A stretch of 64,000 nt of DNA from an uncultured archaeon (GCA_964608675.1 CAZSOZ010000003.1:53041-117040); one strand, 5' to 3'. Numbered from the stretch's first letter, positions 6,711 to 11,585 are shown. The notes: generated by a model from the letters alone, not told the origin. Numbers and translations: made by a program.

Positions 6711-7673
6711 TTATTGTTTTATTTTTTTTCTCCAGTAATCAAGCAAATCCTGCATTGTTTTTTCAAAGGGAATTTCAGGTTTCCATCCTGTTTGTTTTCT
6801 GAATTTAGTTGAATCTCCTAATAAAATTTGCACGTCTGACGGCCTTAATCTTTTGGGGTCTTGTTTTACTTCAAATTCTATTTTGCTTATTTTTTGGAGT
6901 ATGTCAACTATTATTTGTATTTTGTATGCTTTTCCTGAAGCAATATTGTATACTTCTCCGGGAATTCCTTTTTCTGTTGCAAGCCAGTATGCTTTAACCA
7001 TGTCTCTTACGTCTGTGTAATCTCTTTTTGCTTCAAGGTTTCCTACTTTTAATACAGGTTCTTGTTCTCCTGTTTCCATTAATGCAACTTGTTTTGCAAA
7101 ATTGCTTGTAACGTATTGTTCTCCTCTTCTGGGGCCTTCATGATTAAAGGCTCTTGTTCTGATGATTTTTAATCCATAGCTTTTATTGTACTGGTAGCCA
7201 AGCAAATCCATTGCCACTTTGCTTACCCCATAAGGACTTAATGGCCTTAATGGATTGTCTTCTGTTATTGGAACTTCGTTTTCTTTTACTAATCCGTATT
7301 CTTCGCTTGAGCCTGCAATTTGAATTCTTATCTCTTTGTTGTGTTTTTTTATTGCTTCAAAAATATTTAATGGCCCGAAAATGTTTGCGTTCATTGTTTC
7401 TATTGGAGATTTCCATGAACTTGGCACAAAAGCCTGTGCAGCTAAATGAAAAATGTATTCAGGGCTGATTTCTTCTATTGTTTTGTCTACTCCATATGAA
7501 TCAGTTATGTCGCATTCTACTAAATTTATTTTTTTGTTTATTTCTTTGATGTTTGATAAGTCTTCGTTTTTTCTGTAGGTTCCGTATATTTCTCCTAATT
7601 TGTTTTCCAGAATATATTCGCTTAAATGGCTTCCTACAAAACCATTTATTCCTGTTATTAATACTTTTTTCAT
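6711..7673 (-). CDS. GDP-mannose 4,6-dehydratase / GDP-4-keto-6-deoxymannose reductase family SDR
   Basis: ITGINGFVG, HLAAQAFVPSSW, GSSEEYG, SPYGVSK, FNHEGPRRG, GNLEAKRDYTDVRD. Gmd versus Rmd cannot be resolved by eye. Confidence 0.85.
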   Translation of the reverse strand: MKKVLITGINGFVGSHLSEYILENKLGEIYGTYRKNEDLSNIKEINKKINLVECDITDSYGVDKTIEEISPEYIFHLAAQAFVPSSWKSPIETMNANIFGPLNIFEAIKKHNKEIRIQIAGSSEEYGLVKENEVPITEDNPLRPLSPYGVSKVAMDLLGYQYNKSYGLKIIRTRAFNHEGPRRGEQYVTSNFAKQVALMETGEQEPVLKVGNLEAKRDYTDVRDMVKAYWLATEKGIPGEVYNIASGKAYKIQIIVDILQKISKIEFEVKQDPKRLRPSDVQILLGDSTKFRKQTGWKPEIPFEKTMQDLLDYWRKKIKQ

Positions 7674-7691: not shown

Positions 7692-8537
7692 TTAAATTAT
7701 TCCTTTCCATTTATTTTTTGCTTTTTCGTATCTTTCTATGGTGTCTGTGGGAAACCATTGCCCGTTGTAAACATATCCGTATAATTTTCCTTCTTCGCTT
7801 AATTTTGGAAAAACTGCTTCTTCAATTAAAGAGTATCCTTTTGGAAGCATGTCAATTACTTCGGGTTTTAGAATATATGTCCCTGAATTAATTAAATTTG
7901 ATTCTGGTTTAACTGGTTTTTCTATGAATCTTTTTATTTGGTTTCCTTGCAATTCAATTACTCCAAAGTTTTTGGGGTCTTTAACTGAAGTTAATGCAAT
8001 TGTTGCATATGCATTATTTTTTTTGTGGAATGTGTGCATGTCATTCAGGTTAATGTTTGTTAGGTTGTCTCCGTTGAACATAAGAAATTCGTCAAGAAGC
8101 AAATTTTTTGCAAGCCTTAACGGCCCGCCTGTTCCTAATGGTTTTTTTTCTATAACGTATTCAATGTTCATATCCCATTTTTCTCCTGTTCCAAAGTATT
8201 CTTTGATTTGTTCTGCTTTATATCCTAAAGCCATAACTGCGTTTTTTACATGATATTTTGAAAGCAGTTCAATTACGTATTCTAAAATAGGTTTTCCTTT
8301 TATTCCAATCATTGGTTTTGGCGTATTGTTTGTCAAAGGCCTTAATCTTGTTCCTTTTCCTCCTGCTAGAATAAATGCTGTTGACAAATCAGCGCTTTGA
8401 ATTGCTTTTCTTACAAGATATTCGACTGCATGGCTTCGGTTTCTGATTTTTTGTCCGTCAATTTTTTTGTCTATTGCGTTTAGAACTCCGGAATCAATAT
8501 TAATAGTAACCCTTTCCTTTTCATTTTTTTTGTTCAT
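7692..8537 (-). CDS. Ribbon-helix-helix + sugar-phosphate nucleotidyltransferase fusion protein (copy 1, NTP signature intact)
   Basis: N-terminal ERVTINIDSGVLNAIDKKIDGQKIRNRSHAVEYLVRKAI (RHH), then LAGGKGTRLRPLTNNTPKPMI, GTGG, NGD, FIEKP; no C-terminal left-handed beta-helix. Confidence 0.88.
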   Translation of the reverse strand: MNKKNEKERVTINIDSGVLNAIDKKIDGQKIRNRSHAVEYLVRKAIQSADLSTAFILAGGKGTRLRPLTNNTPKPMIGIKGKPILEYVIELLSKYHVKNAVMALGYKAEQIKEYFGTGEKWDMNIEYVIEKKPLGTGGPLRLAKNLLLDEFLMFNGDNLTNINLNDMHTFHKKNNAYATIALTSVKDPKNFGVIELQGNQIKRFIEKPVKPESNLINSGTYILKPEVIDMLPKGYSLIEEAVFPKLSEEGKLYGYVYNGQWFPTDTIERYEKAKNKWKGII

Positions 8538-8559
8538 AATTTTTCATATTATTTATGAT
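8533..8559. promoter_or_regulatory. Putative RHH operator 1: TTCATAA-TTT-TTCATAT-TAT-TTATGAT overlapping the start codon of RHH-NTase copy 1
   Basis: Three TCATA/TATGA half-sites at 10-bp spacing; same layout as 10224-10250; lies between a TTTTAAAA TATA-like box (about 8568-8575) and the ATG. Confidence 0.7.
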
Positions 8560-8612
8560 TACATTCCTTTTAAAAATTAACCGTTGTTTTATTTTTTTTA
8601 GGTTTTTTTTGC

Positions 8613-9425
8613 ATGCTTGGAATAAGTTCTAGTTATTTTGCTTCAAGGGGTTTTTCTGTTTATGATTCAGTTCAGCAGGCGTATTCTTTGGGTTTTAAGG
8701 CAATTGAATTAGGTGCAGCGCATTCTTTTGAAGAAAATTTAAATGAAACAATCCAAAAAATTCATGACGATTTTGATGTGTTTTTTACTTTGCATGGATT
8801 GTTTCCCCCAAGAAAAGAAAAAGTCTGGTTTAATCCTTCTTTGGGTTTAACTCAAACAAATAAAGAAATTATTGATTCTTTTTTTGTTTTTGCTGAACTG
8901 GCCGGCGCAAAACTTATTGGCTTTCATCCAGGTTTTTTGTTTGAAGTTTCTTATGTTGAAAAACAGGGTTTTGGGGAAACCAAAAATTTAAGGCCTTTGG
9001 AAAAAACTGTTTCCTGGAATAATTTGTTTGATGTAATGAATTATTTTAAAGAAAAAAACAGCAATAAATTTTTTCTTGCAATTGAAAATATTACTTCAAC
9101 TGAAGAAAAAGCTTTGGTTTACGGAAAAAATTTTGAGAAAGTTTTCAGTAAATTTCCTTTTTTTGGTTTGCTTTTTGATTTAGGGCATTCTATTACAGAC
9201 AAAACTTATTCTGATTTAATGGAATTCAAAGACAAAATACAGGAAATTCATTTGCATAAACCTGAAGGAAAAAAAATCCATCTGCCTGTTTCTGAAAAAG
9301 ACCTTGAACTGCTTAAGCCAATAAAGCAAATCAATTCAATTCCTGTTATAATTGAGCATTTTAAGGGAATAACAGAAAAACAAATCCTTGAAGAAAAAGA
9401 ATTGTTTGAATCTTTTTTTGGTTAA
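8613..9425 (+). CDS. Xylose isomerase-like / AP endonuclease 2 TIM-barrel protein (sugar-phosphate isomerase/epimerase family)
   Basis: AIELG, TLHG, FHPG, LAIEN, LFDLGH, EIHLH, HLP, IIEH metal-ligand pattern. Confidence 0.8.
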   Translation: MLGISSSYFASRGFSVYDSVQQAYSLGFKAIELGAAHSFEENLNETIQKIHDDFDVFFTLHGLFPPRKEKVWFNPSLGLTQTNKEIIDSFFVFAELAGAKLIGFHPGFLFEVSYVEKQGFGETKNLRPLEKTVSWNNLFDVMNYFKEKNSNKFFLAIENITSTEEKALVYGKNFEKVFSKFPFFGLLFDLGHSITDKTYSDLMEFKDKIQEIHLHKPEGKKIHLPVSEKDLELLKPIKQINSIPVIIEHFKGITEKQILEEKELFESFFG

Positions 9426-10228
9426 ATCATTTTTTTGGCTTTTTCGTAGTCTTTTTTTGTGTTAATGTTTAAGTAGATTCCTTGGAAAGGGTATCCTGTT
9501 AGAAGTCCTTTTTTTGCAAGTTTTGGGAATAAGTCGTTTGAAATGCTTTTCATGTTTCTTGAAATGTATTTGAATATTTCAGGTTCAAAAATATAGTAGC
9601 CTGCATTAATCAGATAACTTGAAGCTTCTGTTTTTGGTTTTTCTTTGAATTCAGTTATTTTTTTTCCTTGTAATACTGCTACTCCGTAATCTTTTGGGTT
9701 GTTTACGGTTGTTAATGCAATTGTTGCAGTTGATTTGTTTGCCTGATGAAATGAAAGCATTTCATTTAAATTAAGACTGCATAATGTGTCTCCGTTTGCC
9801 ACCAGAAAAGTGTCTTTTAGCTGGTTTTTCATTCTCAGCAAAGGCTCTATTGTTCCTGATGCTTTTTCTAATTCAAGAAATTCTGCATCAATCTTTTTTT
9901 GGTTTATTTCTTGAATTATTTCTTCTTTTTCTGCATCCATGCTGACAGTAATTTTTCCTGCATTGAATTCCTGTAAATAGTTTATTACTCTTTCAATTAA
10001 TGTTTTATTATTTAATTCCAGAAGAAACCTGCTTTTTTTTCCTGTTCCTTTAATGAAATCTTTTCCTCCTGCTAAAACAATTGAATTTTTTATTTTGTAG
10101 TCTGAAAGTGTTTTGGATAAAAGGTATTCTACTGCCTGGCTTCTGCTTCTGATGCTTAATCCGTCCACTATTCTGTCTACCTGCTTTAATATATCGTCTT
10201 TTATTGTAATTGTAATTCGTTCTCTCAT
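9422..10228 (-). CDS. Ribbon-helix-helix + nucleotidyltransferase-like fusion protein (copy 2, degenerate active-site signature)
   Basis: MRERITITIKDDILKQVDRIVDGLSIRSRSQAVEYLLSK (RHH); LAGGKDFIKGTGKKSRFLL replaces GxGTRLxPxTxxxPK; NGD, FKEKP and INAGYY retained. Confidence 0.85.
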   Translation of the reverse strand: MRERITITIKDDILKQVDRIVDGLSIRSRSQAVEYLLSKTLSDYKIKNSIVLAGGKDFIKGTGKKSRFLLELNNKTLIERVINYLQEFNAGKITVSMDAEKEEIIQEINQKKIDAEFLELEKASGTIEPLLRMKNQLKDTFLVANGDTLCSLNLNEMLSFHQANKSTATIALTTVNNPKDYGVAVLQGKKITEFKEKPKTEASSYLINAGYYIFEPEIFKYISRNMKSISNDLFPKLAKKGLLTGYPFQGIYLNINTKKDYEKAKKMI

Positions 10229-10250
10229 ACTTTCTCATACTATGTATGAG
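10224..10250. promoter_or_regulatory. Putative RHH operator 2: CTCATAC-TTT-CTCATAC-TAT-GTATGAG overlapping the start codon of RHH-NTase copy 2
   Basis: Perfect 7-bp direct repeat plus perfect 7-bp inverted repeat; TATA-like TTTTAAAA at 10260-10267; lies in the divergent promoter with ugd. Confidence 0.78.
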
Positions 10251-10319
10251 TCATTCTTATTTTAAAATCTTTTTATGCCATTTTACTTTATTGTTTATTT
10301 TTTTTGGGAAGTGATTTTT

Positions 10320-11585
10320 TTGAAGATTTCTGTTATTGGAACAGGTTATGTTGGACTAATTTCAGGCACAGGTCTTGCTTTGAATGGCCATCAAATTGTC
10401 TGTATTGACAGCAATAAAGAAAAAGTTGATTTAATTAACAGTAAAGTTCCTCCTATTTTTGAAAAAGGCCTTAAGGAAGCCTTGAATAAAATTGTTCCTG
10501 ACAGGCTTTCTGCTTCATCTGATTTAAAAAAAGCTGTTTTGGATTCTGATGTTTCTTTTGTTTGTGTTGGAACTCCGTGCAGTAAAGAAGGAAAATGCGA
10601 TTTGACTGCAGTTGAATCTGTTGTAAAGGAAATTGCTTTGGCTTTAAAGGAAAAGACTTCTTTTCATACAATTGTAATTAAGAGCACTGTTGTTCCTTCC
10701 ACTACTGAAAAACTTGTTTTGCCTTTGCTTGAAGAATTTTCAGGAAAAAAGCTGGGAGAGTTTGGCTTGTGTATGAATCCTGAAACTTTAAGGGAAGGTT
10801 TTGCTTTAGAGGATTTTTTGAATCCTGACAGAATTATTCTTGGAATTCAGGATGATAAAACCAGAAAAGCAATGAAGGAAGTTTATTCTTCTTTTTCTTC
10901 TCCTAAATTTTTTTGCGGTTTTTCTGAAGCTGAAATGATTAAATATGCTTCCAATTCCTTGCTTGCAGCAAAAATTTCTTTTATTAATGAAATCGGAAAC
11001 ATCTGCAAGAAACTTGAAATAAATACTTATACTGTTGCTGAAGGAGTTGGATTAGACAAAAGGATTTCCCCTCATTTTTTGAATGCAGGAATAGGTTTTG
11101 GCGGAAGCTGTTTTCCTAAAGATGTTTCTGCTTTGATTGCAAAAGGAAATGAACTTAATATTGAAACTTTTTTGTTGGATTCTGTAATGAAAGTGAATGA
11201 TTTTCAGCCTAAAATTTTTTTGGATTTAATTAAATCTAAAACAGAATTAAAAGAAAAAAAAGTTGGTGTTTTGGGGCTTGCGTTTAAGGCAGGAACTGAT
11301 GATATAAGGGAAAGTCGTTCTATTCCTGTAATTAAAATGCTTTTGGATGAAGAAGCAGAAATTCTGGCTTTTGATCCTCAGGCTGAAGAAAACATGAAAA
11401 AAGAGTTTCCTGAAATTTCTTATTTTGATTCTGCTCAAAAAACAGTTGATGAAAGCGATTTAGTTTTGATTTTAACTGAATGGAGCGAATTTTCTTTTCT
11501 TGAATTTAAAAACAAGCCGGTTTTTGATGCAAGAAACATTTTTAAGAATAATAAACCCAAAAACTATGAAGGGCTGTCTTGGTGA
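10320..11585 (+). CDS. ugd: UDP-glucose/GDP-mannose 6-dehydrogenase
   Basis: KISVIGTGYVG, CVGTP, IKSTV, GFGGSCFPKD catalytic Cys, GLAFKAGTDDIRES. Start moved to TTG 10320 after a GAAGTGA RBS. Confidence 0.92.
   Translation: MKISVIGTGYVGLISGTGLALNGHQIVCIDSNKEKVDLINSKVPPIFEKGLKEALNKIVPDRLSASSDLKKAVLDSDVSFVCVGTPCSKEGKCDLTAVESVVKEIALALKEKTSFHTIVIKSTVVPSTTEKLVLPLLEEFSGKKLGEFGLCMNPETLREGFALEDFLNPDRIILGIQDDKTRKAMKEVYSSFSSPKFFCGFSEAEMIKYASNSLLAAKISFINEIGNICKKLEINTYTVAEGVGLDKRISPHFLNAGIGFGGSCFPKDVSALIAKGNELNIETFLLDSVMKVNDFQPKIFLDLIKSKTELKEKKVGVLGLAFKAGTDDIRESRSIPVIKMLLDEEAEILAFDPQAEENMKKEFPEISYFDSAQKTVDESDLVLILTEWSEFSFLEFKNKPVFDARNIFKNNKPKNYEGLSW

Follow-up and report, generated by a model that had tools for sequence, protein, structure and literature searches.

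Two related genes in a 64,000-nucleotide stretch of DNA from an uncultured archaeon (GCA_964608675.1 CAZSOZ010000003.1:53041-117040; this whole stretch is the window referred to below) each begin inside an array of three half-sites with a 10-bp period. Both encode an N-terminal ribbon-helix-helix (RHH) module fused to a nucleotidyltransferase fold (RHH-NTase). The arrays are best read as self-operators, at which RHH dimers bound in phase would repress the gene that encodes them; the probability of this reading is put at about 0.75. The genes, designated copy 1 and copy 2, their putative operators and the adjoining promoter elements are as follows.

7692..8537, minus strand: copy 1, 281 aa; RHH (strand RVTIN) and NTP_transferase domain with an intact GGKGTRLRPLT loop
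9422..10228, minus strand: copy 2, 268 aa; RHH (strand RITIT) and NTP_transferase fold, with LAGGKDFIKGTGKKSRF replacing the G-x-G-T-R-L loop
8533..8559, minus strand: putative copy-1 operator, on the gene strand ATCATAA-ATA-ATATGAA-AAA-TTATGAA; the third half-site carries the ATG (8537-8535)
10224..10250, minus strand: putative copy-2 operator, on the gene strand CTCATAC-ATA-GTATGAG-AAA-GTATGAG; the third half-site, in phase, carries the ATG (10228-10226)
8568..8576, no strand assigned: TATA-like box TTTTAAAAA, between copy 1 and a divergent TIM-barrel gene
10260..10267, no strand assigned: TATA-like box TTTTAAAA, itself palindromic, 10 nt from the 15-mer palindrome of copy 2 and between copy 2 and the divergent gene ugd

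On the window strand, the array at 10224-10250 reads CTCATAC-TTT-CTCATAC-TAT-GTATGAG and that at 8533-8559 reads TTCATAA-TTT-TTCATAT-TAT-TTATGAT, with the same 10-bp period and the same TTT and TAT spacers. The CAT in the low-coordinate half-site of each is the ATG of the minus-strand gene. Followed along the gene strand, a TATA-like box precedes by about 10 nt the palindrome TCATA-N5-TATGA, and 10 nt further on a third TATGA lies over the ATG. An earlier note on this DNA had spelled out both arrays, with their period, the start codon within a half-site and the TATA-like box close upstream, and all of these details were verified at both genes. It had also pointed to the identical spacers. These are indeed shared in this genome, but orthologs retain just the cores of the half-sites, with spacers free to vary; the identity of TTT and TAT is therefore a coincidence of this genome, whereas the cores and their phasing are conserved.

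With up to one mismatch, TCATA-N5-TCATA-N5-TATGA is matched twice in the window against an expectation of 0.01, and none of 100 shuffles reached two matches. The genome-wide scan that the note had proposed returned only these two promoters: two matches in 1,206,741 bases (32% G+C), both at RHH-NTase genes, against 0.002 expected under a first-order Markov model.

Orthologs were sought in 40 related genomes, in which those of copy 2 are 49-77% identical to it. Among 17 copy-2 upstream regions, TCATA-N5-TATGA is exact in 10, has one mismatch in five and two mismatches in one, and is missing from one; among eight copy-1 regions it is exact in six and has one mismatch in two. Phylogenetic footprinting thus recovers the palindrome, with no more than one mismatch, in 15/17 copy-2 and 8/8 copy-1 orthologs, and it extends to distant homologs. 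In an alignment of ten promoters from both paralogs, the invariant or nearly invariant blocks are the TATA box, CA.A of half-site 1, TA.GA of half-site 2 and TATG of half-site 3; spacers are variable and flanks drift. Within the genus, the TTTTAAAA box is the sole other conserved block of the intergenic region between copy 2 and ugd. The whole proteins of copy 1 and copy 2 are 37% identical and the half-site cores (nearly) invariant, in agreement with the claim that the array has been retained despite protein divergence. Genome G002 (contigs C11 and C43, C41 and C70) has the copy-2 gene twice and nadA twice, approximately 76-79% identical to the query; all four carry the palindrome, and the bin may hold two strains or a duplication.

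Relatives of these proteins are found in DPANN archaea, including Iainarchaeota, Aenigmatarchaeota, Micrarchaeota, Parvarchaeota, Pacearchaeota, Woesearchaeota and Nanoarchaeota, and in bacteria of the Candidate Phyla Radiation (CPR/Patescibacteria). The N-terminal alignment, used to scan species-representative genomes, gave 434 relatives, and the copy-1 alignment, used to scan metagenomes, a further 544; the best 80 of each were kept, yielding 92 distinct upstream regions in the first set and 60 new metagenomic ones. In the group with an R-x-T-x-T strand (58 regions), the interval from -100 to +8 holds a mean of 2.22 TATGA/TCATA cores, compared with 0.44 in shuffles. Adjacent cores are spaced by exactly 10 nt in 82 of 118 cases and by exactly 20 nt in nine of the 118. 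An exact pair of cores 10 nt apart occurs in 57/92 regions and in 17/60 metagenomic regions (shuffles, 0.15-0.5%), and three exact phased cores in 31 of 138 entries. When the 138 proteins were clustered by single linkage, a 50% identity threshold joined 88 of them and was too coarse, so thresholds of 60-80% were used; at 60%, a phased pair is found in 21 of 44 clusters and a set of three phased cores in eight.

The phased sub-sites overlap the predicted core promoter of the regulator's own gene, as in arrayed RHH operators. In the 30 nt ahead of the first core, 49 of 74 phased arrays have a TATA-like hexamer, seven have TTGACW, four have both and 14 have neither, so that one or other is nearby in 60/74. 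Bacterial homologs have two or three direct GTATGA repeats, the first beginning 6-16 nt after TTGACA, and the repeats therefore overlap the -10 region. Aenigmatarchaeota homologs have three or four half-sites. A different operator layout, direct TCATAC-N4-TCATAC repeats, was seen at six metagenomic loci (L164, L168, L176, L188, L206 and L207; L numbers denote loci). The repeats flank the TATA-like box on both sides where a box is visible, and in L164, L176, L188 and L206, not in L168 or L207, a single TATGA follows 19-27 nt downstream, near the ATG.

The fusion of RHH and NTP_transferase domains, already proposed in the note, is supported by Pfam for both genes, though the match to RHH_1 is weak. 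The RHH-type module comprises approximately 45 residues in each, with 47.5% identity between copies 1 and 2 over 40 residues. In an AlphaFold2 monomer model of copy 2 (mean pLDDT 86.7), residues 1-10 are coil, 11-23 and 29-40 are helices, and the enzyme fold follows; the second helix carries an invariant R-x-R-S-x-A-x-E. The best PDB match to the copy-2 N-terminus is E. coli NikR (1q5v; DNA complex 2hzv), with ERITITIKDDILKQVD aligned on QRVTITLDDDLLETLD at an E value of 0.043. ERITIT of copy 2 falls on QRVTIT of NikR, in which Arg3, Thr5 and Thr7 reportedly make the base contacts, and copy 1 has R-V-T-I-N. The operator of E. coli NikR is GTATGA-N16-TCATAC according to PMC7055735, and its half-site hexamer is the same as that of the copy-2 array. 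The NikR-type strand and half-sites that had been predicted are therefore borne out, by the alignment of ERITIT on QRVTIT and by CTCATAC/GTATGAG at copy 2, with the limit that the NikR match is a weak one.

NikR thus resembles copy 2 in its N-terminal RHH domain, R-x-T-x-T strand and GTATGA/TCATAC half-site. In NikR, moreover, a ligand-binding C-terminal domain joins the RHH dimers of a repressor that sits over the promoter, and a parallel is proposed for the fusions. The two systems differ in that Pfam detects no NikR metal-binding C-terminal domain in copy 1 or copy 2, each having NTP_transferase (PF00483), a sugar-nucleotidyltransferase fold, in its place. They differ also in their sites: two inverted half-sites separated by 16 bp in NikR, and three in mixed orientation, 10 bp from start to start, here. 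For both of these reasons the RHH-NTase fusions are not members of the NikR family. By tblastn, no other close RHH paralog was found in this 94%-complete genome. A small RHH gene with the strand G-R-V-T-V-S lies outside the window (genome G000, contig C5:46035-46277) and overlaps the start of the next open reading frame (ORF); by eye it looks like part of an antitoxin-toxin pair, and a TATGA-N5-TATGA at the gene junction is probably due to chance.

Strand type and half-site appear to co-vary across the family. At phased half-sites outside the start codon, the base before TATGA in the R-x-T-x-T group is G in 58, A in 23 and T in two of 83; in the R-x-T-x-N (copy-1) clade it is A in six, T in eight and G in none of 14. 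Proteins with a K-x-S strand have at least two TATGA-type cores in only 1/9 regions, compared with 60/83 other regions. They have a TAGGA/TCCTA core in 6/9, and two or more in 3/9 compared with 1/83, mostly just upstream of the TATA box. Exact TAGGA/TCCTA cores were counted here; ATCCTAC with one mismatch failed to discriminate, ATCATAC being one mismatch away. Homologs with the strand K-I-S-I-T (L071, L096, L106, L114, L115 and L028), of Pacearchaeota, Woesearchaeota and Nanoarchaeota types, show ATCCTAC/GTAGGAT repeats with a period of about 11 nt just upstream of the TATA box, and GTAGGAT is one base from GTATGAT. Five metagenomic homologs with R/H-I-S-L-T (L139, L143, L145, L146 and L165) have palindromes of the form GTATTAC-N3-GTAATAC, placed after the TATA box and before the ATG. 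GTATGA, WTATGA, GTAGGA and GTATTAC may thus constitute natural specificity variants.

In the mechanism proposed, each protein would dimerize through its N-terminal RHH module, and the two-stranded sheet so formed would read one (G/W)TATGA half-site, by R-x-T-x-T in copy 2, as in NikR, and by R-x-T-x-N in copy 1. Three half-sites 10 bp apart (inverted, direct and direct on the gene strand) would seat three dimers on one face of the helix, covering the DNA up to and including the start codon, beginning about 10 bp past the TATA box. Occupancy would block assembly of the pre-initiation complex or promoter escape, and so repress the gene itself. The nucleotidyltransferase-fold domain could provide dimer-dimer contacts, sense a ligand of the nucleotide-sugar type, or both. 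For ugd and the TIM-barrel gene the site would lie about 10 bp upstream of a palindromic TATA box, and may modulate both genes. Binding by these proteins, repression as the sign of regulation, cooperativity and ligand control are all predicted from sequence comparison. A look for sequencing runs turned up three DNA runs of one study and no RNA run.

Several observations weigh against autorepression by these proteins. Pfam RHH_1 scores are low, at 21.3 bits for copy 2, just above the cut-off of 20.5, and 15.8 bits, below it, for copy 1; the E value of the NikR match has the same weakness. The array is not universal: 35/92 and 43/60 upstream regions have no phased exact pair, a bacterial clade with an R-I-T-I-T strand (start MRRSRITITLD) has no array, and the copy-2 ortholog without a site (L010) has a GC-rich upstream region. 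The third site is degenerate in three copy-2 homologs (L042, L043 and L046). Because the copy-1 clade forms one lineage, the correlation of strand and site in it counts as one event, and a metagenome scan for independent R-x-T-x-N lineages recovered the same clade only. The distance from the centre of the TATA box to the A of the ATG is about 35 nt at these genes, longer than the approximately 26 nt typical of archaea. Finally, the palindrome also occurs at other promoters of the genus, so a separate global factor could bind all of these sites.

This last point leads to the strongest alternative, that a different global regulator of the genus binds the palindromes and the RHH-NTase genes are simply members of its regulon. 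All seven TCATA-N5-TATGA sites of the genome (14 matches on both strands, compared with 2.07 expected) are in promoter regions: those of copy 1, copy 2, nadA, GAPDH, glutamate dehydrogenase, transketolase and PPDK. Over six genomes of the genus there are 34 such sites compared with three in the reversed control; in 35 other genomes of the order there are 40 compared with 42. The expansion of the palindrome is therefore specific to the genus. The nadA site, TCATACTTTGTATGA-N10-TTTTAAAA-N22-ATG, lies outside the window (G000 contig C2:31824-31838). Its 15-mer is identical, with drifting flanks, in four of the six nadA loci of the genus (L117-L119 and L129), and is absent from G003 and from G004, where copy 2 was not found. 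In five relatives, TCATAY-N3-GTATGA occurs in six places, all of them copy-2 or nadA promoters (reversed control, one), and TCATAA-N3-WTATGA in 17 (control, two): copy 1 (four), glutamate dehydrogenase (four), FBPase (three), transketolase (two), GAPDH (two), alanine dehydrogenase (one) and one of unclear assignment. Targets were identified by Pfam for one representative each and by eye, from their N-termini, for the rest. The form TCATAA-N3-(T/A/G)TATGA, often exactly TCATAAAAATTATGA, was seen at G000 C1:234225, C1:266876, C2:152092 and C7:37467 and at loci L216-L232 and L234-L237.

The position of these sites follows two patterns. At glutamate dehydrogenase, PPDK and GAPDH they lie at the expected transcription start; at nadA, transketolase and FBPase they lie 10-15 nt upstream of the TATA box, the same geometry as that of the two operators relative to ugd and the TIM-barrel gene. 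The distribution suggests a central-metabolism regulon that shares the half-site. Besides the enrichment and the targets themselves, a separate regulator would account for the hybrid TCATAA...GTATGA sites at the PPDK and GAPDH promoters, which also tell against self-regulation and weaken a clean division into C..G sites for copy 2 and A..T sites for copy 1. It would likewise account for G004, where A/T-type sites are kept and copy 2 is not detectable, and for the exact nadA-type 15-mer in G018 and G024, in which no RHH fusion was found with the query used. On the other side, there is no enrichment outside the genus, yet the promoters of RHH-NTase genes there, across several phyla of archaea and of bacteria, carry the palindrome or GTATGA repeats in phase. 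The phased third half-site occurs in this genome only at the promoters of the RHH-NTase genes themselves, strand type and half-site vary together, and NikR, with the same strand pattern, reads the same hexamer. A separate global regulator is thus considered unlikely, though it is the alternative to be taken most seriously.

The repeats might instead reflect the context of the core promoter or the start codon, such as an archaeal initiator, a leaderless start or a bacterial -10-like TATGAT. The palindrome, with up to one mismatch, is present in 43 of the 92 regions, and in 28 of these 43 the ATG is exactly in phase within the third half-site. TATGAT is one base from the bacterial -10 consensus and stands at -10 distance from TTGACA in L099 and L108. 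Homologs with N-terminal tails of differing length still have the ATG in the third site, and the TATA-to-ATG distance is fixed in spite of those tails. Against this, where the ATG is elsewhere (13 regions), the phased third position is an exact TATGA in nine, with two mismatches in three and four mismatches in one. Since 9/13 keep TATGA away from any start codon, the third half-site is independent of it rather than an artefact of it. Of 750 long-ORF starts in this genome, only 10.9% read TATGA and 26% have T at -1. Moreover, an inverted repeat phased at exactly 10 nt is no feature of promoters, and no promoter of the genome other than those of copy 1 and copy 2 shows the three-half-site pattern. 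Promoter or start context is accordingly given little credence. In L048, L050 and L051 the start lies about 40 nt past the third TATGA, behind a Shine-Dalgarno-like stretch, with TATGA kept and varying flanks. In the copy-2 homologs L048-L051 the third half-site is followed by a leader in which ATTTTTAT...GTACCAAA is conserved, and the ATG of the half-site begins a short reading frame, M(K/N)IF..VP, which looks alike in three of these loci; in L049 the annotated start position is ATA.

Action of the palindrome in the mRNA, as a 5' hairpin hiding the start codon, is very improbable. The copy-2 stretch does fold at -7 kcal/mol (z -2.2), and half-site 1 could alternatively pair with half-site 3, but the corresponding value for copy 1 is only -1.8 kcal/mol (z -1.4), and many homologs, having direct repeats only, could form no hairpin. 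The 5' arm of the palindrome is unlikely to be transcribed because the TATA box is just 10 nt upstream, and at nadA and transketolase the palindrome lies upstream of the TATA box. That the two arrays resemble each other as a remnant of gene duplication, or by chance in AT-rich DNA, is the least credible explanation: the copy-1 and copy-2 promoters do align over their full length, down to a GAATG block that separates TATA box and palindrome, and the genome is only 32% G+C, but the proteins are only 37% identical, the cores are invariant where spacers and flanks have drifted, the expected counts are 0.002-0.01, and the same architecture recurs in other phyla.

The enzyme-fold domains of the two copies appear to have diverged in function. 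Pfam NTP_transferase (PF00483) matches copy 1 with an E value of 1.1e-44 and copy 2 with 2.9e-24. The closest solved relatives of copy 1 are GDP-mannose pyrophosphorylases, and its GGKGTRLRPLT aligns to GGFGTRLRPLT of 7whr. The nucleotide-binding loop of sugar-1-phosphate nucleotidyltransferases has the signature G-x-G-T-R-(L/M)-x-P-x-T, and copy 1, which retains it, is a putative intact enzyme. Copy 2 and its whole clade lack the loop, with LAGGKDFIKGTGKKSRF or a degenerate stretch in its place, and PDB alignments of copy 2 begin past it, at residue 69 or later. The best fold matches of the copy-2 model are also GDP-mannose pyrophosphorylases (GMPPB and VTC1; Foldseek top hits 7d74, 7x8j and 7d72). 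These include the GMPPA/GMPPB complex (7d72-7d74), of which the top chains match the GMPPB sequence. GMPPA is reportedly a catalytically inactive paralog that regulates GMPPB, a GDP-mannose pyrophosphorylase. A loopless copy 2 beside a loop-bearing copy 1 would fit this parallel, and copy 2 is probably a sensor pseudoenzyme; GMPPA differs in acting by protein-protein allostery and in having no DNA-binding domain.

The neighbouring genes are these.

6711..7673, minus strand: gene for a protein of the GDP-mannose 4,6-dehydratase family; follows copy 1 after 18 nt, in the same direction, and is probably co-transcribed with it
8613..9425, plus strand: xylose-isomerase-like TIM-barrel gene, divergent from copy 1
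10320..11585, plus strand: ugd, UDP-glucose/GDP-mannose dehydrogenase, divergent from copy 2; the longest ORF runs from ATG 10275

The start of ugd is likely the TTG at 10320 (MKISVIGTGYVG) rather than ATG 10275, because the starts of orthologs match there and a Shine-Dalgarno-like GGGAAGTGAT is present; the orthologs have the N-terminus MNISVIGTGYVG or MKISVVGTGYVG at the matching position, with a Shine-Dalgarno-like GGAGTGAT ahead. The genes downstream of ugd, judged by eye from their translations, look like galU, a UDP-glucuronate decarboxylase gene, rmlC and rmlB. The genes around both copies are thus predicted to make nucleotide sugars. The divergent layout that the note had described at both sites is kept elsewhere: the TIM-barrel gene is opposite 9/9 copy-1-type genes, and a UDP-glucose/GDP-mannose dehydrogenase is opposite 31 of the 84 genes with a callable upstream neighbour. 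As this pairing is conserved, it is plausible that the arrays also control the TIM-barrel gene and ugd.

RHH autorepressors with arrayed sub-sites are already known, and the fusions would be a variant of these. PutA, in which an RHH domain is fused to a metabolic enzyme, is said to act as an autorepressor in the divergent put intergenic region, and is a precedent for an RHH-enzyme fusion; it reportedly differs in its enzyme domains, its operator sequence and its membrane-association switch. BirA and NadR are likewise said to join a nucleotidyl-transfer enzyme to a DNA-binding domain in a repressor that reads metabolic state, but with helix-turn-helix domains and unrelated enzyme folds. In the RHH proteins of the omega, Arc, MetJ and CopG type, one dimer occupies each short sub-site and binding is cooperative over promoters, as in the scheme proposed here. 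The arrays of omega/ParB of pSM19035 mix direct and inverted repeats (->-><-), according to PMC9499535. The heptads of omega are contiguous and of 7 bp, compared with a 10-bp period here, where each dimer would carry two large enzyme-fold domains. A literature search, supplements excluded, found no description of an RHH-nucleotidyltransferase fusion or its operator; PMC6393860 concerns an unrelated minimal nucleotidyltransferase and not the fusion. New here are the three-half-site architecture, the 10-bp rule across two domains of life, the independence of the third site from the start codon, the strand and site variants and the candidate regulon.

A bolder reading is offered only tentatively, at somewhat less than even odds. 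RHH-NTase fusions may be transcription factors that read metabolites, a family so far undescribed that spans DPANN archaea and CPR bacteria and has a NikR-like recognition code. In this Iainarchaeota genus the pair would form a master switch, made up of an active 'trigger enzyme' of GDP-mannose type and a sensor pseudoenzyme. Besides repressing their own genes at the three-half-site operators, the two proteins would act through two-half-site versions on nucleotide-sugar genes (ugd and the TIM-barrel gene), on NAD synthesis (nadA), and on gluconeogenesis, the pentose-phosphate pathway and amino-acid dehydrogenases (GAPDH, FBPase, PPDK, transketolase, glutamate dehydrogenase and alanine dehydrogenase).

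DPANN archaea and CPR bacteria have tiny genomes with few recognizable regulators, and to our knowledge no transcription factor from either group has a known operator. The locus therefore presents a testable candidate for a protein-DNA pair, consisting of a 27-bp site and a predicted recognition strand, R-x-T-x-T/N. In public databases these proteins are named sugar phosphate nucleotidyltransferase, NDP-sugar pyrophosphorylase or NTP transferase domain-containing protein, and RHH_1 is recorded for only some of them; the putative DNA-binding role is therefore hidden behind plain enzyme names in hundreds of genomes. The organism cannot yet be grown alone, and purified protein would be enough to test the regulon. 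If the regulon is real, an enzyme-derived sensor would couple the supply of cell-surface sugars to NAD synthesis and central carbon flow.

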